Assembly: GCA_945831575.1 (NCBI GenBank)
Contig: CAMACX010000006.1
Coordinates: 3,135-67,134, forward strand
DNA from: an uncultured Mediterranea sp.
GTDB lineage: Bacteria > Bacteroidota > Bacteroidia > Bacteroidales > Bacteroidaceae
Length of the DNA stretch: 64,000 bases
Direction: 5' to 3'
The notes beneath the pieces were generated by a model. The model saw only the letters and a program-made list of their open reading frames with translations. It had not been told where the DNA came from and did no database searches. A program made the position numbers and the translations under genes. This document shows positions 9,456-45,987 of this stretch, in pieces. Each line of letters begins with the position of its first letter. Positions within the stretch are counted from its first letter, which is position 1.

Positions 9456-9490
9456 ATTTTTGAGTTTATATGTGTTTTAAAATGTATCAC

Positions 9491-9513
9491 TTGTAGCTTG
9501 TAGCTCGTAGCTA
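9491..9513. repeat. Three heptamers TTGTAGC TTGTAGC TCGTAGC running into the gpsA stop codon
   Basis: Direct reading. Same motif family as the arrays at 12470 and 45892. Confidence 0.8.
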
Positions 9514-12263: not shown

Positions 12264-12420
12264 AGAAAGTTTTTTTAGATTCCCCACTTTTTTTGCTAAA
12301 TAATCTCAAGAGCCCCATCAATACCTATTATTATTAGGACATAAAGAGCAAATAGTGTCCTTTTTTCATTCAAATAAGACCTATAAACGAACATTGGGAG
12401 CACTATTACAAAACAATTTC

Positions 12421-12428
12421 TACCTTTG
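12421..12428 (+). promoter_or_regulatory. -7 box TAccTTTG upstream of the heptamer-array leader of the 12633 gene
   Basis: Exact TAnnTTTG match about 40 nt before the array starts. Confidence 0.4.
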
Positions 12429-12469
12429 CAGCGTTAGAATAGAATAAGACGGCCAAGCAACAAAGAGCC

Positions 12470-12626
12470 CGTAGCTAGTAGCCCGCAACTTGTAGCTTGT
12501 AGCTAGTAGCTCGTAGCTAAAAACAGAGCTCGTAGCTTGTAGCTCGTAACTTGTAGCTCGTAGCTCATAGCTCGTAACTAAAAATAGAGTTTGTAGCTTG
12601 TAACTCGTAACTTGTAACTTGTAACT
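12470..12626 (+). repeat. 19 heptamers of consensus YGTARCT in three blocks (7, 7 and 5 copies), with AAAAAYAGAG(C)T spacers after the first two blocks and GAAAAA before the ATG
   Basis: Counted base by base. Blocks at 12470-12518, 12531-12579 and 12592-12626. The ATG at 12633 follows GAAAAA. Confidence 0.9.
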
Positions 12627-12632
12627 GAAAAA

Positions 12633-13598
12633 ATGAACTGGATGATAAAATGCTTCGGGGTGTTGATGCTGACTGGAGTGAATACCCTGACCTCTGCGCA
12701 AGAGAAATTGGTTCCACTGAAGTATGGTGATATGGAACAATGGGTGGTACGCACCGTACACGAATCGAGTGTCATCGGAGGAGACGACAAGGTCCTCTAT
12801 GAAATTGGGCCCAACCAATCCGTCATCAGCAACGACCCCTACAAAAATCTGGGTCAATCACCCTGGGGTACCTCGAATGTCATGGCCAAGGTGATGGGCA
12901 TCGTCAAGACCAACAATACGGTCTATCGCGACGTGCGCCCTGAGGGTGGCTACTGCGTCCGCATGGAGACCCACATCGAGAAGGTCAAGGTGCTCGGCAT
13001 GATGAACATCAGCGTGCTGGCTGCCGGATCCATCTTCCTGGGCGACATGCAGGAGCCAATCACAGGCACGAAGGAGGGCGTGCAGGCCATGAACTGGGGC
13101 ATACCCTACACAGAGAGACCCTATGCCCTCTGCTACGACTACCGCGTGAAGCGCAGCGGCGAGCCAAGCCGTATCAAGCTGACGGGATTCAGCAAACGGG
13201 GTGTGGTGAGCGGATCAGACAAGGCCATCACCGTCTGCCTGCTGCAGAAGCGCACGGAGGATGCCGAAGGCCATATCACCGCCCTCCGTGTGGGAACGAT
13301 GGTCGTAACCTATGAGCAATCGACCGACGGCTGGGTCAACAAAGCCTCCTACCCTATCCTCTACGGCAACATCACCGGTCGCCCCGACTACAACGATGAA
13401 CTGATGGGCCTTCGCGTCAACGACTATGCACGCAACAGCAAGGGCGAGATGGTGCCCGTCAAGGAGATAGGATGGGCATCTGCCGATGAGACACCTACCC
13501 ACCTGTTGCTGCAATTCTCCTCCAGCCACGGAGGAGCCTACGTGGGTACACCGGGCAATACATTCTGGGTGGACAACGTGGGACTGATCATGAAATGA
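12633..13598 (+). CDS. Secreted PCMD-domain-like protein (putative carbohydrate metabolism domain)
   Basis: 321-aa ORF with a signal peptide ending TSAQE. The overall pattern resembles the Bacteroidota PCMD family. The family call is from memory. Confidence 0.65.
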   Translation: MNWMIKCFGVLMLTGVNTLTSAQEKLVPLKYGDMEQWVVRTVHESSVIGGDDKVLYEIGPNQSVISNDPYKNLGQSPWGTSNVMAKVMGIVKTNNTVYRDVRPEGGYCVRMETHIEKVKVLGMMNISVLAAGSIFLGDMQEPITGTKEGVQAMNWGIPYTERPYALCYDYRVKRSGEPSRIKLTGFSKRGVVSGSDKAITVCLLQKRTEDAEGHITALRVGTMVVTYEQSTDGWVNKASYPILYGNITGRPDYNDELMGLRVNDYARNSKGEMVPVKEIGWASADETPTHLLLQFSSSHGGAYVGTPGNTFWVDNVGLIMK

Positions 13599-13673: not shown

Positions 13674-14861
13674 ATGAGCATGAAAAGATACCGACTACCC
13701 TTACTCCTCACGCTGTGGCTGAGCACTTCCACCCTGCAAGCACAGGAGACGACTTATGATGCCGCTGTAATGCAGCAGACCGCCACTCCTGCCGACAGCG
13801 TCAAACGCAAGGGGTGGTTCAACCGCTTCCTGGATTACTTCAACGACGCCAACAAAGAAAAACCTCAACGTAAGTTTGACTTCAGCATCATCGGTGGTCC
13901 ACACTACAGCACCGACACCAAGCTGGGCATAGGCCTTGTAGCTGCAGGACTCTACCGCACCAATCCGACCGACTCACTCCTGCCCCCATCAAACGTCTCC
14001 CTCTTCGGCGACTTCTCGTCTGTAGGGTTCTACCTGCTCGGCATACGCGGCACACACCTCTTCCCTCAGGACCGTTACCGGCTGGACTATACGCTCTACG
14101 GATTCTACTTTCCCAGTAAGGTGTGGGGCATCGGCTACGATGAGGGCAACCTGGATGCCAACGAGTCGGATCTGAAGCGGTGGCAAGCACGCATCAAGGT
14201 CGATTTCCTAATCCGTGCAGCCAAACACTTCTACGTGGGTCCTTCGGCCTCCTTCGACTACGTACTGGCCAAAGAGGTGGAGCGACCCGAGTTGCTTCAC
14301 GGCATGGACCGGCACACCACCAACATCGGCGTGGGACTGACCATGGTCTATGACTCGCGCGACGTGATGACCAACCCCCACCGCGGCTTCTATGCCTCGC
14401 TGAGCCAGCATTTCCGCCCCGCCTTCCTGGGCAACGACTACGCCTTCAGTACCACCGACTGGCGATTCAATACCTACAACAAGGTGTGGAACGGGGGCTT
14501 GATTGCCACAGACTTCCGCGGCACGCTCAACTTCGGTACCCCCTCATGGGGCATGATGGCCCTGCTGGGCAGCTCAAACACCATGCGCGGCTACTACGAA
14601 GGACGCTACCGCGACAAGCATAAGATGGAGGGAACCATCGAACTGCGTCAACACGTATGGAAGCGCAACGGCATCGTGGTGTGGGCCGGAGCGGGTACCG
14701 TATTCCCCAAATTCTCTGCGCTCCGCTTCGACAAACTATTGCCCAACTATGGTTTCGGCTACCGATGGGAGTTCAAGAAAGATGTCAACGTGCGTCTGGA
14801 CTATGGCTTCGGCAAGAATGGCCAATCGGGATTCCTGTTCAACATCAACGAAGCCTTCTGA
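13674..14861 (+). CDS. Omp85/BamA-TamA family outer-membrane beta-barrel protein
   Basis: 395-aa ORF with a signal peptide (LQAQE). Alternating beta-strand pattern with an aromatic C-terminus (NINEAF). Confidence 0.7.
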   Translation: MSMKRYRLPLLLTLWLSTSTLQAQETTYDAAVMQQTATPADSVKRKGWFNRFLDYFNDANKEKPQRKFDFSIIGGPHYSTDTKLGIGLVAAGLYRTNPTDSLLPPSNVSLFGDFSSVGFYLLGIRGTHLFPQDRYRLDYTLYGFYFPSKVWGIGYDEGNLDANESDLKRWQARIKVDFLIRAAKHFYVGPSASFDYVLAKEVERPELLHGMDRHTTNIGVGLTMVYDSRDVMTNPHRGFYASLSQHFRPAFLGNDYAFSTTDWRFNTYNKVWNGGLIATDFRGTLNFGTPSWGMMALLGSSNTMRGYYEGRYRDKHKMEGTIELRQHVWKRNGIVVWAGAGTVFPKFSALRFDKLLPNYGFGYRWEFKKDVNVRLDYGFGKNGQSGFLFNINEAF

Positions 14862-14903: not shown

Positions 14904-16613
14904 ATGAATTATAATCATCCGCTCTATCGCTTCTTGGCGAACTGCTGCCGCCCCAGATTCCTCTATTTCTACTACCTCATCGCCTTGATACTGCCCAACG
15001 TAGGCCTCTCGATTACCGAACCCATGGGCATCATGGCCCGCATCACGAACCTGTTGTTGCCAGCCGGTCTCTATGCCCTGCTGCTCACCTGCAACCGTAA
15101 GCCGGGGAAGATGATCTGGATTCTATTTCCCCTCGTCTTCCTGGCAGCCTTCCAGCTGGTGCTACTCTATCTGTTTGGACAATCGGTCATCGCGGTGGAT
15201 ATGTTTCTCAACGTAGTCACCACCAATCCGGGTGAGGCCATCGAGCTGCTCGACAACCTTATCCCTGGGGTGGCCGGTGTCTTTATCGTCTATCTCCCTG
15301 CGCTGATTCTCGGCCTCTGCTCGCTGCGCATGGGGCAGCTGCTGGAGCGGCCCTGGATTACCCGTGCCCGACGCTGGTCAGCGGGCCTACTCGGTGCAGG
15401 GACAGTTTGCCTGGGTCTCACCTACTTGGCCGAGCCGAATTACACCGCACACAAAGAGCTCTACCCGCTCAACGCCAGCTACAACCTCTACCTGGCCATC
15501 GAACGGACCAACAAGCAAGTCCACTATGCCGAGACTTCGCGCCACTTCCGCTTCAAGGCCACCTCGACCCATAGCTCACCCCAAGAGACCTACGTGCTTG
15601 TGATCGGCGAGACGGCCCGTGCCTGCAACTTCAGCCTCTACGGCTACGACCGCGACACCAATCCACAGCTAGCCTCCATCGATGGACTCTTCACCTTCCG
15701 CGATGCGCTGACGCAATCCAATACCACCCACAAGAGCGTGCCTATGTTGCTTTCAGCTGCATCGGCTGAGGACTTTGACCGCATCTACCGGGAGAAGAGT
15801 CTGATTACGGCCTTCCGCGAAGCGGGATTCCACACCCTCTTCCTCTCCAACCAACGGCCCAACCACTCGTTTATCGACTTCTTTGGCATGGAGGCTGATG
15901 AGTACCACTTCCTGCAGGAGGAGCAACCCGGCGAAGAGATTCCATCGGATGCTGACCTGCTCCAGGGGGTGAAGCAAGCATTGACGCAGCATGAAGACAA
16001 ACTGCTCATCGTACTCCACGCCTACGGTTCGCACTTCAACTACCGCGAGCGCTACCCGCGCTCGATGGCACACTTCACGCCCGATGACCAGACCGATGCC
16101 AAGTACAAGAACCGCGCCTCGCTCGTCAACGCCTACGACAACTCTCTCCGCTTCACCGATGCCATCCTGGGAGAGCTCACCACGCTGCTCACCACTCACG
16201 GCGGTATCGCAGCCTGGATCTACACCTCCGACCACGGGGAAGACCTCTTCGATGACAGCCGGCGCTGCTTTCTCCACGCCTCGCCCGTACCCACCTACTA
16301 CCAGATTCATGTGCCGCTCTGGATCTGGCTCTCAGCTGACTATCGCACGCATTATGCCGCAGAGGCCGAAGCCCTGGAAGCCCATACCGACCAACCGGTG
16401 TCCACCAGCCTTTCGCTGTTTCACACCCTGCTGCAGCTCGGCGGACTCTCCACACCGGTGCTTGCAGACAGCCTCTCGCTCTGCTCTCCCAGTTACCATC
16501 CTGTACCGCGTTGCTACCTCGACGACCACAACCGCCCCGTGCCGTTGCATGAGCTAGGCCTGACCGAAGAAGACATCAAGCAATTTCATCGCCACAGGGT
16601 AGCATACGAATAA
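14904..16613 (+). CDS. Phosphoethanolamine transferase (EptA/sulfatase superfamily)
   Basis: 569-aa ORF. Five N-terminal TM helices, then a sulfatase-like domain (VLVIGETARA, HAYGSHFNY). Confidence 0.8.
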   Translation: MNYNHPLYRFLANCCRPRFLYFYYLIALILPNVGLSITEPMGIMARITNLLLPAGLYALLLTCNRKPGKMIWILFPLVFLAAFQLVLLYLFGQSVIAVDMFLNVVTTNPGEAIELLDNLIPGVAGVFIVYLPALILGLCSLRMGQLLERPWITRARRWSAGLLGAGTVCLGLTYLAEPNYTAHKELYPLNASYNLYLAIERTNKQVHYAETSRHFRFKATSTHSSPQETYVLVIGETARACNFSLYGYDRDTNPQLASIDGLFTFRDALTQSNTTHKSVPMLLSAASAEDFDRIYREKSLITAFREAGFHTLFLSNQRPNHSFIDFFGMEADEYHFLQEEQPGEEIPSDADLLQGVKQALTQHEDKLLIVLHAYGSHFNYRERYPRSMAHFTPDDQTDAKYKNRASLVNAYDNSLRFTDAILGELTTLLTTHGGIAAWIYTSDHGEDLFDDSRRCFLHASPVPTYYQIHVPLWIWLSADYRTHYAAEAEALEAHTDQPVSTSLSLFHTLLQLGGLSTPVLADSLSLCSPSYHPVPRCYLDDHNRPVPLHELGLTEEDIKQFHRHRVAYE

Positions 16614-20878: not shown

Positions 20879-21601
20879 TTAAAAACTCATTCCTACTGTA
20901 AAATAGGCCCCTTCCGTACGCGGGTTCCAGGTGGCTGTGGCAAATAGCGGCAGGGAGAAGCTATCGGTCACCTTGATCTCCTTGGTAGCTCCAATGCTGA
21001 GGCTGACCACAGCAAATCCGTTCGCGCCATAGAAGCTGGTCTCCCAGGGGGTAGCTCCCACTTCGGCTGTCCACTCCATGTCGCCCAGCTTGAAGGGGGC
21101 TGCAAGGGTGACGTACGATGAATAGGCGCGTTTTCCGTTGCTTTTCACGCCATCGGCTCCTGCAAAGTTGGTGTACCAATTGAGGGCAACGGGGCCAAAA
21201 TCGTAACCCACTTGTGCTTCCAGCACGTGCGAGTTGGTCTCGTTATGGGCTCCGTACTGGAAATACTTGGCCGCTTGGTCGCCAGCCATGTTGAACCAGT
21301 AATCGGTGGCTGAGATGCTGAATCCTCCTGTGGAGTAGCCCAGTGTGAGGTCAAACTCCTTGGTATCGCTACTCTCCAGCCCTACAGAGCCCCATGCTCC
21401 GAGCGAAAATCCTTTGTAGGCTACCGAGAGAGAGGGCTGAACACTCACACCTCCCAGATCCTGGCCACGCCAGATGTAACCGCTCACTACATCTGCTCCT
21501 ACAGATGTCTCTACTTTGTCTTGTGCATTTGTCGCAACAGGCATCACGGCAATCAGACTTACCAAGATGGCCTTCATTCTCTTTGTGGTTTTTTCTTTCA
21601 T
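20879..21601 (-). CDS. Outer-membrane porin-like beta-barrel protein, first gene of the P-II/Amt operon
   Basis: Signal peptide (AVMPVATNAQ), alternating beta pattern and a C-terminal F. The start could be 21601 or 21577 (the track gives 21631). Confidence 0.6.
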   Translation of the reverse strand: MKEKTTKRMKAILVSLIAVMPVATNAQDKVETSVGADVVSGYIWRGQDLGGVSVQPSLSVAYKGFSLGAWGSVGLESSDTKEFDLTLGYSTGGFSISATDYWFNMAGDQAAKYFQYGAHNETNSHVLEAQVGYDFGPVALNWYTNFAGADGVKSNGKRAYSSYVTLAAPFKLGDMEWTAEVGATPWETSFYGANGFAVVSLSIGATKEIKVTDSFSLPLFATATWNPRTEGAYFTVGMSF

Positions 21602-21660
21602 CTTTGTTACCTTTTTTGTAAAACAATCCATTTACTATCACTAATTATTATTTTCCAGAA

Positions 21661-21770
21661 AATATGTATTTGTATCTATCTTGTAATTTGTATTATTGTT
21701 GCTTGTATTTGTATTATTGTTGTCTGTATTTGTATAGTTATCATTGTTTGTATCTGTATCAGTCGGTCTG
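21661..21770. repeat. T/G-rich low-complexity tandem repeats (TGTATTTGTAT core, with a duplicated 19-bp GTAWTTTGTATTATTGTTG segment at 22-bp spacing)
   Basis: Direct reading. GTAATTTGTATTATTGTTG lies at 21683-21701 and GTATTTGTATTATTGTTG at 21705-21722. Confidence 0.8.
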
Positions 21771-23981: not shown

Positions 23982-24327
23982 CGACATTTTGTATTCATCA
24001 AGCAAAAATCTACTTTCTTTTTTCTATAAAAAAGTATAATAAATTTCTATTCAATAGCTAAAAGCACGATATACTTACAGATTAAAAGCTATAACATAGT
24101 ATTAGTAACAATATGACATTATATATTTGGTATAATGGGTTGATATGTCATAAATCCGTTGAAGAGACCTCAAAAGGCGGCTATAAAAATAGCCCAGGGC
24201 ATCAGTTTGCCCTGAGCTATCTCTCGATGTTGACACAAATCTCCTTATCATCACGCAAATCTACGTGAATGAGCAAAATGAAAGTCAATCTGTGTGCTAT
24301 CTGTCAATCTGTAAAATCCGTGGTTCC

Positions 24328-24369
24328 TAATCACTAATCATTAATCACTAATCATTAATCACTAATCCC
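24328..24369. repeat. Six heptamers TAATCAY (GTGATTA/ATGATTA on the gene strand), 12 nt after the DPP-IV stop
   Basis: Counted base by base. Confidence 0.9.
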
Positions 24370-26775: not shown

Positions 26776-28380
26776 TTAGAACCCGAAGCGGGCGCTGTTC
26801 CAGAAGTCAGCAGCCATCTCATCCCAGCTCAGGATAGTGGCGCCGATGAAGTCGCGCGTGTAGCCGTTGAGGTAGTTGCGGGCAGCCTCCTCACCCTCCT
26901 CCTTGAGGATGGCCTGATAACGGGCCTCCACCATGGGCAGTTCCTGCTGCCCCTTGCACTCAAAGTGGAGCACGTTCTGCTCAATCTGCTTACGCCATGT
27001 ACCCCATCGCAGGGCGGCCAGTTTGTTGGCCTCGCGGTAGTGCCACAGGGCCGCATCCTTGCGGTAGCGGTGGTTGCCGCAGATGCCATAGAGGGCAGGC
27101 AGCTTGGTCACACCGCAGAAGATGGGCACACGTGGGCTCTGTCCCGGATTGTCCATCGAGAACCATACCACGCCACCCACGGCATCGGGCAGCCAGGAGC
27201 GCAGCTGGATAACCGTGGAGTAGGCACATTGGGGCACGGAGATGTTGCGCACGTTCTTCACCGCCCCCTCTCGGATACCGTTGAGCATCTTCTGCTCGTC
27301 GGCACGCATCCAGGGGTTGGCCTTGGGACTGACGATGGTGTCTGTCCGTCCATCCTTATGCTTCACGGTCACCTTCAGGTTGCGGGTGATGTCGAGGTCG
27401 GTGCCTTCGTAGGTCTCACGCAGCAGGGCCATCACCCGGGTCACGTCCACCGGACCCTCAGGCTTCACGCTGAAGGGGAGCTCCTCGGCGTTGATGTCGA
27501 GATGCAGCGAAGGGGCCAGCGCATTGAGCACAAACCATTCGCGCACGCTGAACGACTTCTTCTCGCCGAAGTAGTTGCCTCCGCTGTAGGCCTTCCAGAA
27601 CTTGAAGGGCTCCTTGCCATCCCAGTAGCCCAGGCGGCGGGCCACGTCGAAAACGTTGTCAGAAGCCATGAAGTGCTCCTTATCCTTGAGGTTGAGGGTG
27701 GAGATGCGCGAGATGTTGGCCGAGATGCCCACGTGGTCGTCAGGGATGCGCTGGGCAGCCCATACTCCGCCAATCTTCTCCTTGCCTTCGCCGAAGACCT
27801 CAAACTGCCACACCTCCTGAGGGTCGGCCACGGTAAGGCATTCGCCGCTGTCGGCGTAACCATATTGCTTGATGAGCTGTCCCATCAGTCGGATGGCCTC
27901 ACGGGCGGTGGTGCAGCGCTCCAGGGCGATGCGTTGCAGCTCCTCAATCATAAACATGCCCTTGGGGTTCTGCAGCTCCTTGCGTCCACTGATGGTGGTC
28001 TCGCCCATGCCCAGCTGCTTCTCGTTGAGGCAAGGGTAAGAGGTGTTGAGGAAGGCGTAGGTGTGACGCACCTGCGGGATTTCGCCCTTCACTTTGACCC
28101 CCGTGCGGTCGGAGGCAAACTCGGTATGCATCAGGCCATCGTAGATGGTGGTCACGGTGTCGCGCTCAAAGTCCTGTGCAGCAGGGATGTTGACCCAGGT
28201 GCGGTACCAGCTGTCGCACGTGTGGCTGGTGATGACAGAGCCGTCGGCACTCGCCTTACGCCCCACCATGATGCTGGTGCAGCTCTCCGGGTCACGAGGA
28301 TGAGCAGTCTGGGCCTCAGCAAGAACCCCCATCTGAGCCAGGCCCAACGCCAAGAGGAGAAAAGAATGGATTGCTTTCAT
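26776..28380 (-). CDS. C69 family dipeptidase, secreted
   Basis: 534-aa ORF. Signal peptide followed by a Cys-containing SCTSIMV block, typical of the Ntn-type C69 nucleophile. Confidence 0.8.
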   Translation of the reverse strand: MKAIHSFLLLALGLAQMGVLAEAQTAHPRDPESCTSIMVGRKASADGSVITSHTCDSWYRTWVNIPAAQDFERDTVTTIYDGLMHTEFASDRTGVKVKGEIPQVRHTYAFLNTSYPCLNEKQLGMGETTISGRKELQNPKGMFMIEELQRIALERCTTAREAIRLMGQLIKQYGYADSGECLTVADPQEVWQFEVFGEGKEKIGGVWAAQRIPDDHVGISANISRISTLNLKDKEHFMASDNVFDVARRLGYWDGKEPFKFWKAYSGGNYFGEKKSFSVREWFVLNALAPSLHLDINAEELPFSVKPEGPVDVTRVMALLRETYEGTDLDITRNLKVTVKHKDGRTDTIVSPKANPWMRADEQKMLNGIREGAVKNVRNISVPQCAYSTVIQLRSWLPDAVGGVVWFSMDNPGQSPRVPIFCGVTKLPALYGICGNHRYRKDAALWHYREANKLAALRWGTWRKQIEQNVLHFECKGQQELPMVEARYQAILKEEGEEAARNYLNGYTRDFIGATILSWDEMAADFWNSARFGF

Positions 28381-28440
28381 TATAGAATCGTTTGATGAAT
28401 TATAGAATCGTTTGATGGATTATAAAATCGTTTGTTACGT
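28381..28440. repeat. Three 20-bp tandem repeats TATAGAATCGTTTGATGRAT abutting the C69 start codon
   Basis: Units at 28381-28400, 28401-28420 and 28421-28440 (the third is diverged). Confidence 0.9.
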
Positions 28441-28489
28441 TGTTGAATAGTGCATTGACCATGTCAAGGCTGTGACGGGCAGTTCTGAA

Positions 28490-28605
28490 GAGTGAACTGT
28501 TCAGCGATGAAAGTTTAACTATTCAGCGATGGCAGTTTAACTGTTCGAACGCGAAGAGTTAACTATTCGAACATAAAGAACTCCCCAGCCATGAACAGTT
28601 CACTC
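28490..28605. repeat. Inverted-repeat-flanked module: 14-bp IR GAGTGAACTGTTCA / TGAACAGTTCACTC enclosing four 22-bp tandem units (AACTRTTC...AGTT)
   Basis: Units at 28495, 28517, 28539 and 28561. IR at 28490-28503 and 28592-28605. Confidence 0.9.
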
Positions 28606-28623
28606 ATTTCAAGCCCCGTCCCC

Positions 28624-28686
28624 TAATCACTAATCACTAATCATTAATCACTAATCACTAGTCATTAATCCCCAATCCCTAATCAC
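28624..28686. repeat. Nine heptamers TAATCAC/TAATCAT running into the pepC stop codon
   Basis: Counted base by base. The last unit (28680-28686) overlaps the TGA at 28683-28685. Confidence 0.9.
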
Positions 28687-29870
28687 TTAAAAAAAATCTT
28701 CTTACGAATCTCCTTGGGGAGGGCATCCTTGTGTACCATGATGTAGATGGTCTTGGCACGGACATAGCTGGTGGACATGTTGAGGTAGCCGCCAAAGCGG
28801 TTGCGGTCGGTGCCCCAGGAGTTCTTGGTGACGTAGTAGCGGGTGCCGTTCTGGTCGGTCACGATGCCGGTGATGTGCATCAGGTGGTCGTCGGTAGTGA
28901 CAAACTTCGCATAGCCCTCCTGGCGCACTTCAGGCGTCACCTCCACCTCGGGACAGGGGCGCTCGAAGCGGTAAGCCTCCTCCAGCATATCGCGCTGCTC
29001 CTGGCCGGAGAGCTGCTCAAAGCGCTCGCGGTCGGTGGTCGAGAGGTCGCTCGCCGAGCGCTTCTTCGGGTTGATGGCCACGCCGTTCTTGTGGCTGAAT
29101 CCGCGCTCGCTCACGTCGCCATCCCAACATACCGTGTAGCCGTGGGTCAAGGCATGGTCCATCACCTGCATCAGCTCGTCCAGCGGCAGGTTGTACATCA
29201 GCTGATGCTCCCAGTTGTCGGGCACCTCGGGAGCAAACTGCTGGTAGTAAGGCTTATGGGTGAAGCTGGTCAGCTCCACGTAGTCATCCATGTTGAGTCC
29301 CAGGCTGGCCGCAAAGCTCTGCGGCGTGTAGCTCTTGCCCTGGTAGGTAAAGTTCTCGGGCAAAGGGCCCAGATAGGTGTCCATCAGCGCATTCACCAAC
29401 TGATCATACTGCGGCGAGCGGGCCTTCAGCTTGACCGAGGCATCGGCCAGCGCCTTGACGTAGGTAGCCAGCTCCTGGTGGTCGTGACGCTCCGAAGCGT
29501 AATTGATGCCGTGATAGACCTCCTCCGGCACGATACCCACCTGCCTGAAGGCTTTCATCCAAGTGTGTGACAGGCTCCCCTGCCCCACGTTGCCCTGTCC
29601 GCGGCGGTAGTAGTTGTCCTCCATCTGGTTGAGGTACTTCTGACGCACGATGAAAATCTCCGAGAGGTCATACTCCCCCTTGCCCATGCGCAGCAGTTCC
29701 GACTCCATGAAGGAGGTGGTGGCGAAGCACCAGCAGGTGCCCGTAGCAGCTTGATTCTTCACAGGCGTGGCAGGCACAGAGGCCACGTCAGCAAACTGAT
29801 AGCCGCTCTCCTGAGCGACTGCGGCCGTTGCGCAAAGCAGCAAGGCCATCATTCCAGATCGTAGATTCAT
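28683..29870 (-). CDS. pepC: Aminopeptidase C / bleomycin-hydrolase-like C1 cysteine peptidase, secreted
   Basis: 395-aa ORF with the papain-type catalytic block QAATGTCWCFA and a signal peptide. Confidence 0.85.
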   Translation of the reverse strand: MNLRSGMMALLLCATAAVAQESGYQFADVASVPATPVKNQAATGTCWCFATTSFMESELLRMGKGEYDLSEIFIVRQKYLNQMEDNYYRRGQGNVGQGSLSHTWMKAFRQVGIVPEEVYHGINYASERHDHQELATYVKALADASVKLKARSPQYDQLVNALMDTYLGPLPENFTYQGKSYTPQSFAASLGLNMDDYVELTSFTHKPYYQQFAPEVPDNWEHQLMYNLPLDELMQVMDHALTHGYTVCWDGDVSERGFSHKNGVAINPKKRSASDLSTTDRERFEQLSGQEQRDMLEEAYRFERPCPEVEVTPEVRQEGYAKFVTTDDHLMHITGIVTDQNGTRYYVTKNSWGTDRNRFGGYLNMSTSYVRAKTIYIMVHKDALPKEIRKKIFFK

Positions 29871-36373: not shown

Positions 36374-36434
36374 GCCGGAGAATAGTCATGCTGGTATCGG
36401 CATTTATCTCAATTTATCTCCCTCACTATCTCCA

Positions 36435-36485
36435 TTTATCTCCTGCCTCATATTATCTCCTGCCTCATGTTATCTCCCGCCTCAT
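36435..36485. repeat. Three 17-bp tandem units WTTATCTCCYGCCTCAT ending on the ATG of the tail-chaperone ORF
   Basis: Units at 36435, 36452 and 36469. Looser TTATCTC copies run from 36402. Confidence 0.85.
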
Positions 36486-36654
36486 GGAGACACTCACCTT
36501 CATGCACTGCTGCCTGGCCAGCGCGTGCAAGGCCGACGGCATACCCTTTGAGATGGATGTGCAGGAGATGGCCGACCAGCTGACCCCCGACGACGTGAAC
36601 GCCTTCGCGGCCTCACTCAGCGGCGGAGAGGCAAAAAAAAGTAGAATTTTCTGA
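36484..36654 (+). CDS. Tail assembly chaperone G-like ORF (probably 5'-truncated)
   Basis: 56-aa ORF ending 13 nt after an A8 run, directly upstream of the T-like ORF and the tape-measure gene. Confidence 0.55.
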   Translation: METLTFMHCCLASACKADGIPFEMDVQEMADQLTPDDVNAFAASLSGGEAKKSRIF

Positions 36655-36985
36655 GAGAGAGGTCGGTGAGACCGGTATTGCCGACCTCGTGGCTGTGTCA
36701 GTGGGGAGCATGGGCTTGAGTCTGGACGACTTCTGCTCCATGACTCCCCACGAATTTTATCTCACCCAGCGCGCCTGGCACCGCACGCACGTGGAGCAGC
36801 CCTGGGAGCAGACGCGCCTGCTGGCCTGCTCCATGCTCCAGCCCTGGAGCAAGAAGAAGCTCCGCCCCGAGGACGTGATGCGCTTCGCCTGGGACGAAAA
36901 GAAGACCGCCAGCGCCCACCCTGCCCACAGAGAGCAGAGCACGCGCCAGCGGTTCGATGAGATCAAGAAAAGGTGCGGGGGCTAG
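36599..36985 (+). CDS. Tail assembly chaperone T-like extension. It has no ATG of its own and is predicted to be expressed as a G-T fusion by a +1 (or -2) shift at the A8 run (36633-36640).
   Basis: Frame +1 relative to G is open from 36599 through the A8 run. MGLSLDDFCSMTPHEFYLTQRAW resembles the conserved gpT/GTA chaperone motif. The track lists the ORF from GTG at 36689. Confidence 0.55.
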   Translation, partial: TPSRPHSAAERQKKVEFSEREVGETGIADLVAVSVGSMGLSLDDFCSMTPHEFYLTQRAWHRTHVEQPWEQTRLLACSMLQPWSKKKLRPEDVMRFAWDEKKTASAHPAHREQSTRQRFDEIKKRCGG

Positions 36986-37116
36986 TCCTTGCGGAATAGG
37001 TAAAACAGAGCACGTATTCCTATCGAAATCCCCGCATATAGGCCATACGCAAGCAACGCCAAGTTGCAGAAAGCTATGAAGCAGTAAAACAATTTATCCC
37101 AGAAAAACCTATCCAT
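36982..37116 (-). CDS. 44-aa hydrophobic small protein (MDRFFWDKLFYCFIAFCNLALLAYGLYAGISIGIRALFYLFRKD), antisense between the tail genes
   Basis: Translated by hand and below the ORF-track cutoff. One or two predicted TM segments. It has its own TAtaTTTG box 25 nt upstream. Confidence 0.4.
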   Translation of the reverse strand: MDRFFWDKLFYCFIAFCNLALLAYGLYAGISIGIRALFYLFRKD

Positions 37117-37141
37117 ACCCGTTACGATTATTAACACGCTG

Positions 37142-37149
37142 CAAATATA
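37142..37149 (-). promoter_or_regulatory. -7 box TAtaTTTG (minus strand) upstream of the 44-aa ORF
   Basis: The plus strand reads CAAATATA. Confidence 0.4.
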
Positions 37150-37166
37150 AACATTATTTTTTTAAT

Positions 37167-43114: not shown

Positions 43115-43122
43115 TACTTTTG
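43115..43122 (+). promoter_or_regulatory. -7 box TActTTTG upstream of the sulfatase gene
   Basis: Exact match 90 nt before the ATG at 43213. Confidence 0.4.
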
Positions 43123-43212
43123 TCTTCATATCCTATGTGTTTTAATCTAACATGAAGGCTATTTATTCAACGTGAAGGACAAATTATTTAACTTAAAGAA
43201 TAACTTATCGAC

Positions 43213-44769
43213 ATGAAGAACAACTTAATGCTATTATCGTGCCTTTCAGCTGGCGTAGGTCAGCTGGTGGCTACCCCGGCCCAGGCTGAGGAGGGGAAGA
43301 GAAAACAGACTCAGGAGAAAGCTCCCAACGTAATCGTCATCCTGGCCGATGACCTGGGATATGGCGACCTGCAATGCTATGGAGCCAAGAACGTGGAGAC
43401 ACCCAATGTCAACCGGCTGGCTGCCCAGGGCATCCGGTTCACCAACACCCACGCCATAGCGGCGACCAGTACCCCCTCGCGCTACTCGCTGCTCACAGGT
43501 GAATATGCATGGCGGCGACCCGATACCGATGTGGCGGCAGGTAATGCGGGTATGATCATCCGGCCCGAACAATACACCATGGCCGACATGTTCAAGTCGG
43601 CCGGCTACCGCACGGCGGCTTTCGGCAAGTGGCACCTGGGGCTGGGCGACAAGACGGGTATGCAGGACTGGAACGCTCCCCTACCCTGCGGACTGGCCGA
43701 CATCGGATTTGACGAACACTACATCATGGCTGCCACGGCCGACCGCGTGCCCTGCGTCTTCATACAGAACGGGCAGGTGGCCAATTACGACCCCTCGGCA
43801 CCCATCGAAGTGAACTACCAAAGGAATTTCCCTGGCGAACCCACGGGAAGGGACAATCCCGAACTGCTCTATAACCTCCGCTCCAGCCATGGTCACGACT
43901 ACTCCATCGTCAACGGTATCGGCCGCATCGGCTACATGAGGGGTGGCGGCAAGGCGCTCTGGAAGGACGAGGACATCGCCGACTCCATCACCTCCCACGC
44001 CATCGACTTCATCCGCCGCAACCAGGATGAGCCCTTCTTCATCTACTTCTGCACCAACGACATCCATGTGCCCCGATTCCCGCACCCCCGCTTCCGGGGC
44101 AAGACCAACATGGGCCTGCGAGGCGATGCCATCGCACAGTTTGACTGGTGCGTTGGAGCACTCATGCAAGCCCTGGATGAGATGAAGCTGGCCGACAACA
44201 CGCTGATCATCCTCACGAGCGACAACGGTCCCGTAGTGGATGACGGCTACGACGACCAGGCCGAGGAGCTGCTCCATGGCCACCAGCCGGCAGGTCCCTG
44301 GCGCGGCAACAAGTACAGCGCCTTCGAGGGCGGTACCGCCGTGCCAGCCATCGTGCGTTGGCCGGCCAAGGTGAAGGGTGGACAGGAGTCGGACGTGCTG
44401 ATGTCGCACATCGACTGGATGGCCTCGCTGGGCCATCTGCTCCAGGCCCGCCTGCCTAAAGGCTCCGCCCCCGACAGCCAAGACCGCCTGGGCAATCTGC
44501 TGGGTACCGACGCTACCGAGCGCCCCTGGGTCATCGAGCTGGCCTCCAACCACGTCCTCTCCGTACGCACCAAGGAGTGGAAATACATCGAGCCCAACGA
44601 CGGACCTGCCATGATACCCTGGGGACCGAAGATTGAGACAGGCAACCTGAGCACTCCGCAGCTCTACCACATCAGCCAGGAGCAGGACGAACGCACCAAC
44701 GTTGCCGCCGAGCACCCTGACATCGTCTTCGAGATGCAGAACATCCTACGGCGCGAACGGGCCAAATAG
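43213..44769 (+). CDS. Arylsulfatase-family sulfatase, secreted
   Basis: 518-aa ORF. ILADDLGYGD and the formylglycine motif in Ser form (S-T-P-S-R in ATSTPSRYSLLTG). Confidence 0.85.
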   Translation: MKNNLMLLSCLSAGVGQLVATPAQAEEGKRKQTQEKAPNVIVILADDLGYGDLQCYGAKNVETPNVNRLAAQGIRFTNTHAIAATSTPSRYSLLTGEYAWRRPDTDVAAGNAGMIIRPEQYTMADMFKSAGYRTAAFGKWHLGLGDKTGMQDWNAPLPCGLADIGFDEHYIMAATADRVPCVFIQNGQVANYDPSAPIEVNYQRNFPGEPTGRDNPELLYNLRSSHGHDYSIVNGIGRIGYMRGGGKALWKDEDIADSITSHAIDFIRRNQDEPFFIYFCTNDIHVPRFPHPRFRGKTNMGLRGDAIAQFDWCVGALMQALDEMKLADNTLIILTSDNGPVVDDGYDDQAEELLHGHQPAGPWRGNKYSAFEGGTAVPAIVRWPAKVKGGQESDVLMSHIDWMASLGHLLQARLPKGSAPDSQDRLGNLLGTDATERPWVIELASNHVLSVRTKEWKYIEPNDGPAMIPWGPKIETGNLSTPQLYHISQEQDERTNVAAEHPDIVFEMQNILRRERAK

Positions 44770-44820
44770 GAAGATTGGACAGATTTCCTGAATGTTGACA
44801 ATCACAAGAAAGTGACTCCA

Positions 44821-44970
44821 AAGTAACTCTGCCGTACCTCTAATCCATCTCTAATCGTACTCTAATCAAACTCTAATCATTCTCTAATTCGCGATTAGAC
44901 CTGGATTAGAGTTACTTCGGAGTTACTATTGAGTTACTACGGACCTACCTTAGACCTAGATTAGACCTAC
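44821..44970. repeat. About 150 bp of motif arrays phased at exactly 11 bp: CTCTAATC x5, inverted GATTAGAS x2, GAGTTACT x3, TTAGACCT x2
   Basis: Start positions are 44838/49/60/71/82, 44893/904, 44909/20/31 and 44950/61. AAGTAACTC at 44821 is the inverse of GAGTTACTT. Confidence 0.9.
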
Positions 44971-45101
44971 GACTGACTCGCTTTTGCCCTACACAGGAAC
45001 ACTTCTTAACATTTCAGTAACAAAGAAGCCTTTACAGTCAAGCCAGTCTCAATATTTACAAATAACCGATACAATATCTTATAAGATAAAAGATAACAAC
45101 A

Positions 45102-45147
45102 ATACCTGAAAGGGGGAGAAGCAGATGCTTCTCCCCCTTTCAGGTAT
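45102..45147. terminator. Bidirectional terminator hairpin between the sulfatase and SIMPL genes
   Basis: Perfect 22-nt arms ATACCTGAAAGGGGGAGAAGCA / TGCTTCTCCCCCTTTCAGGTAT separated by 2 nt. Confidence 0.7.
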
Positions 45148-45172
45148 TTTACCCAACCGATGAGACTTGTGC

Positions 45173-45874
45173 TTACTGCTTGAGGTAGTAGTTAACGGTG
45201 GTCACCACGCGGATGCTCTTGATGTAGGGCGTATTGCTGTCGCGGTCTTCGATGACAAACTGTCCCTGCGAGGCGTTACGTATCTTGCCCAGGCGACTGT
45301 CGCTGTCCTTGGCAAACTTCTCAGCTGCGGCACGGGCGTTGCGCGTGGCCTCTTCAATCATGCGAGGCTTCACGTCGTTGAGCTTCGTGAAACTATAGGT
45401 CACGTTGTAACGGTAGTCACCCCCCGTGATGGCGATACCCTGCTTAAGCAGTTCGGCCTGCTCACCCATCAGCTGGCGCACCACATCCACACGCTGTGAG
45501 GTGACGGTAATAACCGATGTGGCATTATAACGGTAGTTCACATTCTGTGCCCCGTAGCGCTCAGCCTCCATGTCGATAATCTCAGGGGCGGCAATGCTGA
45601 TTTCCTCCTCCTGGATGCCACGGCTCTTAAGGAAGGCCACGATGGCCTGGTTCTTCTTATTTATATTGGCATAGATGGTGGTAGGGTCGTTGCCGATATC
45701 CTTAAACATCAAGGGCCAGACCACCTTATCCGCCGGCACCTCCATCTCAGCCAGTCCCTTTACCGTGACGATACGGTCCTTGGCGATAAACTCTGTAATA
45801 CCTTTCTTAACCTGACTGCCCAAAAGGAACAGTCCCACGGCGATGATAATCGCCTCCCATTTCAAGCTTTTCAT
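45173..45874 (-). CDS. SIMPL (DUF541) domain periplasmic protein
   Basis: 233-aa ORF. N-terminal TM/signal segment and a pattern typical of the SIMPL/26-kDa periplasmic immunogenic protein family. Confidence 0.75.
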   Translation of the reverse strand: MKSLKWEAIIIAVGLFLLGSQVKKGITEFIAKDRIVTVKGLAEMEVPADKVVWPLMFKDIGNDPTTIYANINKKNQAIVAFLKSRGIQEEEISIAAPEIIDMEAERYGAQNVNYRYNATSVITVTSQRVDVVRQLMGEQAELLKQGIAITGGDYRYNVTYSFTKLNDVKPRMIEEATRNARAAAEKFAKDSDSRLGKIRNASQGQFVIEDRDSNTPYIKSIRVVTTVNYYLKQ

Positions 45875-45891
45875 GCAATTTCATTTTTTAA

Positions 45892-45968
45892 GTTACGAGC
45901 TACAAGCTACGAGCTACGAGTGACATGCTACGAGTGACATGCTGCGAGCTACAAGCTATAAGCTACCA
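45892..45968 (-). repeat. Eleven heptamers (gene-strand reading YYGTAGC, i.e. GTAGCTY) forming the 5' leader of the SIMPL gene
   Basis: Counted base by base. Same motif and same sense orientation as the array at 12470. Confidence 0.9.
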
Positions 45969-45979
45969 GTTATTGTGAG

Positions 45980-45987
45980 CAAATGTA
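45980..45987 (-). promoter_or_regulatory. -7 box TAcaTTTG (minus strand) immediately upstream of the heptamer leader
   Basis: The plus strand reads CAAATGTA, 12 nt from the first heptamer. Confidence 0.4.

Follow-up and report, generated by a model that had tools for sequence, protein, structure and literature searches.

Introduction

TAACTGA repeats are intergenic tandem heptamers that have been described in Beggiatoaceae, Cyanobacteria and five Bacteroidetes (MacGregor 2015, PMC4679880). Most are in forward orientation and precede a start codon by a few nt to some tens of nt, their forward strand contains stop codons, no functional theme is shared by the genes downstream, close relatives have repeat-free and shorter intergenic regions, and repeats of other heptamers are found alongside them (PMC4679880). 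The arrays that we analyse here resemble them in each of these respects, so that the statement of a preliminary description of this locus, namely that no regulatory element of this form had been described, is not supported. Unlike the TAACTGA repeats, the arrays of the present window are built from a GTARCTY unit with mixed R/Y variants, contain a 61-bp higher-order block and belong to a gut Bacteroidaceae host, and their copy-number polymorphism within a species is shown directly.

According to the summary given in PMC4679880, heptanucleotides are the commonest class of prokaryotic long simple sequence repeats (LSSRs) with units of 5-11 nt (Mrazek 2007), slippage is their proposed mechanism and units whose length cannot be divided by 3 are kept out of coding sequence. 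The arrays of the window are alike on both points, with periods of 7, 11 and 20-22 in noncoding DNA and periods of 3, 12, 15 and 36 in coding DNA. As summarized there, the LSSR survey is a statistical one and gives no rule of position or orientation with respect to start codons, unlike what is seen for the window arrays. Effects of simple sequence repeats (SSRs) located in 5'-UTRs are also documented in other bacteria, as far as the summaries in PMC4679880 and, for Haemophilus influenzae, PMC12721329 describe them. Like the window arrays, the AGAT repeat of Moraxella catarrhalis uspA2 and the H. influenzae 5'-UTR SSR are slippage-prone, follow the promoter and precede the start codon of a surface-related gene, and their copy number differs between strains. 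Their units are 4 nt or shorter and their expression effects have been measured, whereas the window arrays have a 7-nt unit.

Another family, the cyanobacterial STRR heptamers, was reportedly described by Mazel et al. in 1990 as tandem families present in many copies per genome, intergenic and of unknown function. The STRR units (CCCCAGT, TTGGTCA, CAACAGT), phylum and G+C pattern differ from those of the window; the window unit, YGTARCT, is neither the TAACTGA nor an STRR unit, and its host is a member of the Bacteroidaceae, not a cyanobacterium. Searching the literature for the exact repeat sequence returned unrelated primer matches only. The kind of repeat is already known, and what is new is the GTARCTY unit, its 61-bp blocks and the direct view of intraspecies polymorphism.

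Sequence and layout of the main array

In the window, by which we mean the whole stretch of DNA analysed (64,000 nt), the main array is made of 19 YGTARCT heptamers at 12464-12632 (+), arranged in three blocks of 7, 7 and 5 units. The consensus is perfectly matched by 15 units; of the other four, three depart from it at a single position and one at two. Block 1 (12464..12524, +) consists of AGAGCC, seven heptamers (CGTAGCT AGTAGCC CGCAACT TGTAGCT TGTAGCT AGTAGCT CGTAGCT) and AAAAAC; block 2 (12525..12585, +) consists of AGAGCT, seven heptamers and AAAAAT; and block 3 (12586..12632, +) consists of AGAGTT, five heptamers, four of which are the GTAACT variant, and GAAAAA, with the ATG at 12633 directly after it. 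Every sequence detail of the 7+7+5 layout, the promoter box and the ATG position that had been given in the preliminary description was re-read and is correct, and the super-repeat of roughly 61 bp that it proposed is also reported by Tandem Repeats Finder, which finds period 61 (2.6 copies, 85% match, score 229) together with period 7 (22.4 copies).

The two-unit pattern GTARCTYGTARCT, with at most one mismatch allowed, has 23 matches in the window versus 0.33 expected from shuffles, and none of the 100 shuffled windows contained 23 or more. With head-to-tail units in the 5-11-nt range extending far longer than chance, the main array belongs to the prokaryotic long SSRs. The sense strand carries 7-9 stops per frame and neither ATG nor GTG, in agreement with the earlier reading of the 7-nt period as non-coding, while on the antisense strand one frame is free of stops and the remaining two contain only 2-3. 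Because the antisense strand of the array is poor in stops, a spurious minus-strand ORF of 145 aa appears at 12420-12857; it overlaps the PCMD gene and we take it as an artefact.

Promoter, leader geometry and downstream genes

The promoter box of the PCMD operon is TACCTTTG at 12421..12428 (+), a Bacteroidetes-type -7 element (TAnnTTTG), followed by the non-repetitive 5' part of the leader at 12429..12463 (+), as read from the sequence. Together with its flank (TACCTTTGCAGCGTTA), the box is conserved in relatives at 80-88% protein identity. The window contains 35 TAnnTTTG boxes, 21 of them in intergenic DNA, which makes up 12.7% of the window, and most are found 17-31 nt ahead of a start codon. 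Judging from Bacteroidetes promoter geometry, PCMD transcription would start near 12435-12440. The main array is probably transcribed as part of the mRNA leader, and its earlier placement in a 5' leader holds well, since the conserved TAnnTTTG box lies upstream of it and no second box of this type fits between the array and the ATG. The array lies after the -7 box and before the ATG, outside both the promoter spacer and the reading frame, which is not the position of a contingency locus.

The operon encodes a PCMD-domain protein (PF13201; 12633-13598, +), an Omp85-like protein (13674-14861, +) and an EptA-like phosphoethanolamine transferase (14904-16613, +), as assigned by Pfam/NCBIfam scans. 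The same gene order is present in relatives, and lysS is the divergent upstream neighbour of the PCMD gene.

Two further GTAGCTY arrays in the window

A second sense-oriented leader array, already noticed in the preliminary description, is present at 45890..45966 (-), where 11 GTAGCTY-type heptamers stand in the leader of the SIMPL/DUF541 gene (45173-45874, -). The promoter box of this gene, TACATTTG at 45980..45987 (-), is again of the TAnnTTTG type, with the array just downstream of it. The distance from box to ATG is 204 nt for the PCMD gene and 105 nt for the SIMPL gene, and the distance from the end of the array to the ATG is 6 and 15 nt, respectively. Once the arrays are removed (163 and 77 nt), 41 nt remain in the PCMD leader and 28 nt in the SIMPL leader, near the usual 17-31 nt, so that both arrays look like expansions inside ordinary short leaders.

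A third array of 3-4 GTAGCTY heptamers, missed by the earlier reading, is located at 9486..9513 (+), between the gpsA stop and the pgi start. These two genes are on the minus strand and the array is antisense to both, with the TAG stop of gpsA overlapping its edge; the sense orientation noted before is therefore that of the two leader arrays, not of every GTAGCTY array in the window. The three GTAGCTY arrays, like the two CTAATCA arrays described below, lie between ORFs and at most overlap an adjacent stop codon.

Array length among strains and relatives

Orthologous PCMD loci were fetched by exact protein look-up. The nearest named homologues belong to metagenome-assembled genomes of Mediterranea, Bacteroides and Prevotella, and at least one source sample is a pig metagenome, from which the host is judged to be an uncultured member of the Bacteroidaceae living in the gut. 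In the lineage with 88% PCMD identity the leader reads CGTAGCT TGTAGCT CGTAACT (CGTAACT) AAAAAGAAG ATG, with four units in two samples and three in another, the protein being identical. The lineage at 84% has about five degenerate GTAAC-type units, and the one at 82% (L011) has an unrelated ATTAGAC-type repeat at the same position of the leader. Relatives at 80%, 74%, 72% and 70% protein identity have leaders without an array. Closer to the window, a second assembly is identical across the main array, while strain L139, from a pig metagenome and with an identical LysS, carries 11+6 units in two blocks versus 7+7+5: the AAAAAC AGAGCT spacer of blocks 1 and 2 is missing, so that they are fused as one block of 11 units, the last block has six units, and the array region is 26 nt shorter than in the window. 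A left-flank search of JGI metagenomes for further alleles of the main array of the window species gave no matches.

The SIMPL array behaves in the same way. Within the species, 11 units are found in the window and in five of the ten retrieved loci, and nine units in the other five; the 9-unit alleles lack one GTAGCATGTCACTC, a 14-nt (2-unit) indel that is polymorphic among samples. The sister species, with 94% protein identity, has a 25-nt leader without an array at the seven loci shown. Taken over both genes, the array-less relatives (70-80% PCMD and 94% SIMPL identity) have short leaders, with about 25-40 nt from the box to the ATG. Since the arrays are present in independent assemblies of different samples, they are not an assembly artefact.

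The copy-number variation that had been hypothesized before as slipped-strand is seen here directly, as is the rearrangement of whole blocks, with changes of ±1 unit (3 vs 4), of ±2 units (11 vs 9) and of whole blocks (7+7+5 vs 11+6). Far from being absent or randomly placed in close relatives, the arrays occur at the same place in the closest ones. Array-free sister lineages, together with length differences between strains, indicate that the two leader arrays are young, lineage-specific and currently polymorphic, by one unit, two units or whole blocks, which is the behaviour of a microsatellite.

We also observed that three of the six Logan contigs retrieved for the 88% PCMD relative (L002, L003 and L006) start exactly at the array, and that L011, the one contig available for the 82% relative, has its start inside the repeat found there. 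Heptamer repeats fragment short-read metagenome assemblies, and links between promoters and genes may be hidden in metagenome-assembled genomes.

Folding of the leaders and accessibility of the start region

The preferred fold of the 215-nt PCMD leader has a predicted energy of -48.9 kcal/mol, with z = +0.33 versus dinucleotide shuffles, and the SIMPL leader folds more weakly than most shuffles (z = +1.77). A structured RNA leader was rejected on these values, which represent no gain over shuffles. No Rfam family matched anywhere in the window at gathering thresholds, and a known RNA family, such as a riboswitch or an attenuator, was ruled out on this ground.

Ribosomes of Bacteroidia disregard the Shine-Dalgarno sequence, and initiation is tuned by mRNA structure and by upstream nucleotides (PMC6847099). 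The energy predicted for opening the region from -20 to +15 around the PCMD start is 3.1 kcal/mol for the real sequence and 2.9 kcal/mol with the array deleted, and rises to 6.5 kcal/mol when block 3 is all GTAGCT and to 9.4 kcal/mol when the whole array is GTAGCT. The GTAACT variant lacks the self-complementary AGCU core of GTAGCT, so that, by prediction, the start region opens more easily with GTAACT units beside the ATG. These modelled energies suggest that selection may keep the PCMD start region open and that the array may be part of the mRNA.

Distribution of heptamer arrays in other genomes

When each species was represented by one genome and runs of four GTARCTY units were sought, at least 119 loci were found, in many phyla. 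Among the matches listed, about 36 are from Bacteroidota and have mixed C/T and A/G units like those of the window, while the arrays outside Bacteroidales are mostly pure repeats of a single unit (Alcanivorax, Halomonas, Pseudomonas, Shewanella and others). GTARCTY arrays recur in many Bacteroidales genomes, and three of them are present in the 64-kb window. As a control, 4-unit arrays of two scrambled heptamers were counted in viral contigs, giving 14 and 33 loci versus 21 for GTARCTY. Scrambled heptamers form arrays about as often, indicating that the 7-nt period is special and the GTARCTY unit is not; the idea of a special, horizontally spread GTAGCTY motif was rejected on this result and on the mostly pure single-unit arrays outside Bacteroidales. 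The wide distribution of GTARCTY reflects heptamer repeats generally. Consistent with this, period 7 accounts for 73 of about 155 tandem-repeat regions across 314 kb of the listed Bacteroidota loci, with the window added, a dominance that agrees with the LSSR survey of Mrazek as it is summarized in PMC4679880.

Among the matches listed, the genes that follow arrays in other Bacteroidales include some whose N-termini, judged by eye, are purD-, aroE- and UvrD-like-helicase-like, and some with signal-peptide-like N-termini. The PCMD and SIMPL products have hydrophobic N-termini, the sole basis on which they had been called exported proteins. A link between arrays and exported proteins looks coincidental, since the third array of the window lies between gpsA and pgi and other arrays precede purD-, aroE- and UvrD-like genes.

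Inverted pairs of the form (RAGCTAC)n-loop-(GTAGCTY)n are frequent in other Bacteroidales and in Pseudomonas among the matches listed, and the pair of Bacteroides timonensis folds with -48.8 kcal/mol (z = -8.4). In a strict automated check of the listed Bacteroidota arrays, this arrangement was found six times and the opposite one not at all, and none of the latter was noticed by eye either. The leader arrays of the window are single arms with no inverted partner, which sets them apart from REP or MITE hairpins. Loci with inverted pairs are L071 4130-4250(-), L113, L036, L056, L066, L080 and L084, and, in Pseudomonas, L049, L052, L068, L079 and L114; their hairpins are very stable and fill either the gap from the upstream stop to the downstream start or the gap between convergent genes. 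GTAGCTY arrays stand directly beside repeated REP-like hairpin cores, of which GGGCGCAAGATGTTGCGCCC and CCACAAGGCCGTTGGCCTT are examples, at L032, L034, L040 and L067 (two Bacteroidales MAGs) and at L048 (three copies in 2 kb), which suggests that some genomes have arrays that move together with small repeated elements or expand on them.

Orientation of the arrays relative to gene boundaries

Orientation was counted on ORFs that were called crudely, by an ATG start and a length of 100 codons or more. Among the matches listed in Bacteroidota genomes, arrays at most 60 nt from a start codon are sense in 15 cases and antisense in 3 (p = 0.0075), and those beside stop codons are antisense to the ending gene in 17 cases versus 7. 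Among 130 arrays collected independently in JGI metagenome contigs, sense arrays prevail at start codons (25 vs 9, p = 0.009; 9 vs 1 for mixed-unit arrays) and antisense ones at stop codons (46 vs 26 relative to the ending gene, p = 0.025). The nearest gene boundary is thus at the 3' end of the GTARCTY reading. About nine arrays from other Bacteroidota among the matches listed overlap a stop codon (distance -3 or -2), as at gpsA.

Stop-codon content accounts for the start-codon half of this orientation rule, not for the stop-codon half. The sense bias at start codons is not predicted by pure neutrality and points to some strand-specific constraint or function of the arrays; the orientation rule is the main evidence, and the sole feature, suggesting that selection acts on them and that they are not entirely neutral. 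In addition, arrays with a majority of GTAACT units make up 9 of the 15 start-proximal and 3 of the 12 stop-proximal Bacteroidota arrays among the matches listed, one A/G tie being left out of the latter count; with a Fisher p of 0.12, this enrichment was not retained and is a trend only.

Discussion

We consider it probable that the main array is a recent, hypermutable heptanucleotide SSR, driven by slippage and still changing in the 5'-UTR of the PCMD/Omp85/EptA-like operon. The repeat, its place, its recent origin and its polymorphism are observed; its transcription, slippage as the mode of change and near-neutrality under selection are what we infer. Replication slippage would add or remove single 7-nt units, while larger misalignment or unequal recombination would duplicate or fuse the blocks of about 61 bp. 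Transcription from the conserved TAnnTTTG promoter would then yield an mRNA carrying (GUARCUY)n, an RNA with stops in every frame, devoid of AUG and predicted to be no more structured than a random sequence. As initiation in Bacteroidia would need an open, A-rich start region and not a Shine-Dalgarno sequence, the non-self-complementary GUAACU units next to the ATG and the GAAAAA after them may preserve translation initiation, and the array may be tolerated because its sense orientation and these A-variant units leave initiation of the Bacteroidia type intact. A change of expression, if there is any, would most likely be a modest by-product of leader length and not dedicated regulation. Tandem arrays make up further intergenic regions of the window as well, which supports the reading as an SSR. 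Besides the orientation rule, two observations speak against it: three lineages independently carry some repeat in the PCMD leader, which could mean that the site is favoured, and the GTARCTY unit occurs three times in 64 kb and recurs in Bacteroidales.

The same polymorphism at the PCMD and SIMPL leaders would also be expected of an adaptive tuning knob, in which slippage in the 5'-UTR shifts leader length, and with it mRNA stability or translation, to give heritable and reversible variation in the amount of envelope proteins in gut populations. The downstream genes are indeed envelope-related (PCMD/Omp85/EptA-like and SIMPL), effects of 5'-UTR SSRs are on record for other bacteria in the accounts of PMC4679880 and PMC12721329, and Logan contigs breaking at the edge of the array could represent coexisting alleles, or equally the difficulty of assembling repeats. 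We nevertheless think this unlikely, given that no functional theme emerges, the arrays flanking housekeeping-like genes (gpsA and pgi, and by eye purD-, aroE- and helicase-like ones), that the array alters neither promoter spacing nor reading frame, and that the predicted accessibility of the start region is alike with and without it. The orientation bias, significant in two independent data sets, would fit a dedicated cis-regulatory array, in which GUARCUY is a putative binding unit, recognized either by a protein that binds single-stranded RNA, each monomer covering about 7 nt, or by a complementary RNA, within a Bacteroidales-wide post-transcriptional regulon. The same idea was put forward for the TAACTGA repeats (PMC4679880), the arrays end 0-39 nt ahead of the ATG, inside the landing zone of the ribosome, and a gpsA-pgi transcript would carry the complementary (RAGCUAC)n. 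Such a regulon seems to us very doubtful, and a binder of the cold-shock-like, S1-like or RRM type equally so, considering that orthologues of sister species have ordinary short leaders and the genes therefore do not need arrays, that copy number is unconstrained (3 to 19 units) and the unit sequences drift, that the relative L011 has an unrelated repeat at the same site, and that scrambled heptamers form arrays at similar rates.

Highly improbable, in our view, is an inserted element, either one arm of a REP- or MITE-like hairpin or a site acting at the DNA level, for instance one bound by a nucleoid protein or TAnnTTGT boxes that resemble a weak promoter. It would be in line with the frequent inverted pairs of other Bacteroidales and Pseudomonas, including the strongly folding one of B. 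timonensis (z = -8.4), with the REP-like cores flanked by some arrays (L032, L034, L040, L067, L048), and with the sequence TARCTTGT, differing from TAnnTTTG at two positions, that is read in sense units whose Y is T. However, neither leader array of the window has an inverted partner or folds better than shuffles, reading the flanks by eye revealed neither terminal inverted repeats nor target-site duplications, and alleles differ by whole units, with 3-4 units at the same spot in the closest relatives, which fits growth in place. A broader proposal is that GTARCTY arrays are orientation-constrained elements of Bacteroidales as a whole, present as sense single arms in leaders and as paired giant intergenic hairpins, and either read by a factor with a 7-nt register or used as a slippage-based tuner of expression at the level of the population. 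We regard it as quite unlikely; were it true, a repeat-based variation system would exist alongside the known invertible promoters of gut Bacteroidales.

Heritable variation in gut Bacteroidales has been attributed mainly to invertible promoters and shufflons. With the hypermutable SSR that we favour, leader heptamers, whose number ranges from 0 to 19 among sister lineages and also differs between strains, may be a second and little-studied source of variation. If copy number affects expression, the arrays could serve as strain-level markers and as natural expression variants for envelope genes.

Other tandem repeats in the window

Two arrays of CTAATCA on the plus strand, that is TGATTAG on the gene strand, are located at 24327-24367 (6 units) and 28623-28687 (9 units), and each begins either at the stop codon of a gene on the minus strand or immediately behind it. 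The second is part of an intergenic region of 300 nt (28381-28682) that consists entirely of three tandem arrays: a 20-mer (2.8 copies) abutting the ATG of gene 26776-28380(-), four 22-mers, and then the TGATTAG heptamers. A T/G-rich tandem repeat of 21 nt (3 x 7) is found at 21680-21759, upstream of gene 20879-21631(-). The sulfatase gene (43213-44769) has an extended leader (window 43115-43227), with a TACTTTTG box 90 nt before the ATG and a 21-nt repeat in three copies, and is another case in which tandem duplication has made a leader longer.

Replication direction was considered as a cause of array orientation, and GC skew reveals neither a clear origin nor a clear terminus within the window. 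At 36374-37166, where gene orientation turns from mostly minus to mostly plus, 793 nt are without a long ORF; this region opens with 10- and 17-nt repeats of the TTATCTCC type, and its GC skew shows no clear origin signal.

Between the convergent genes around 44790-45150, 11-mer arrays occur as inverted partners, CTCTAATCnnn followed by GATTAGAC/GATTAGAG, and AAAGTAACTC against GAGTTACTnnn, and after them comes a perfect G+C-rich hairpin at about 45105-45150. The length of this spacer varies among strains and species (401-403 nt versus 564-584 nt), and the ATTAGAC repeat in the PCMD leader of the relative L011 is similar to its 11-mers.
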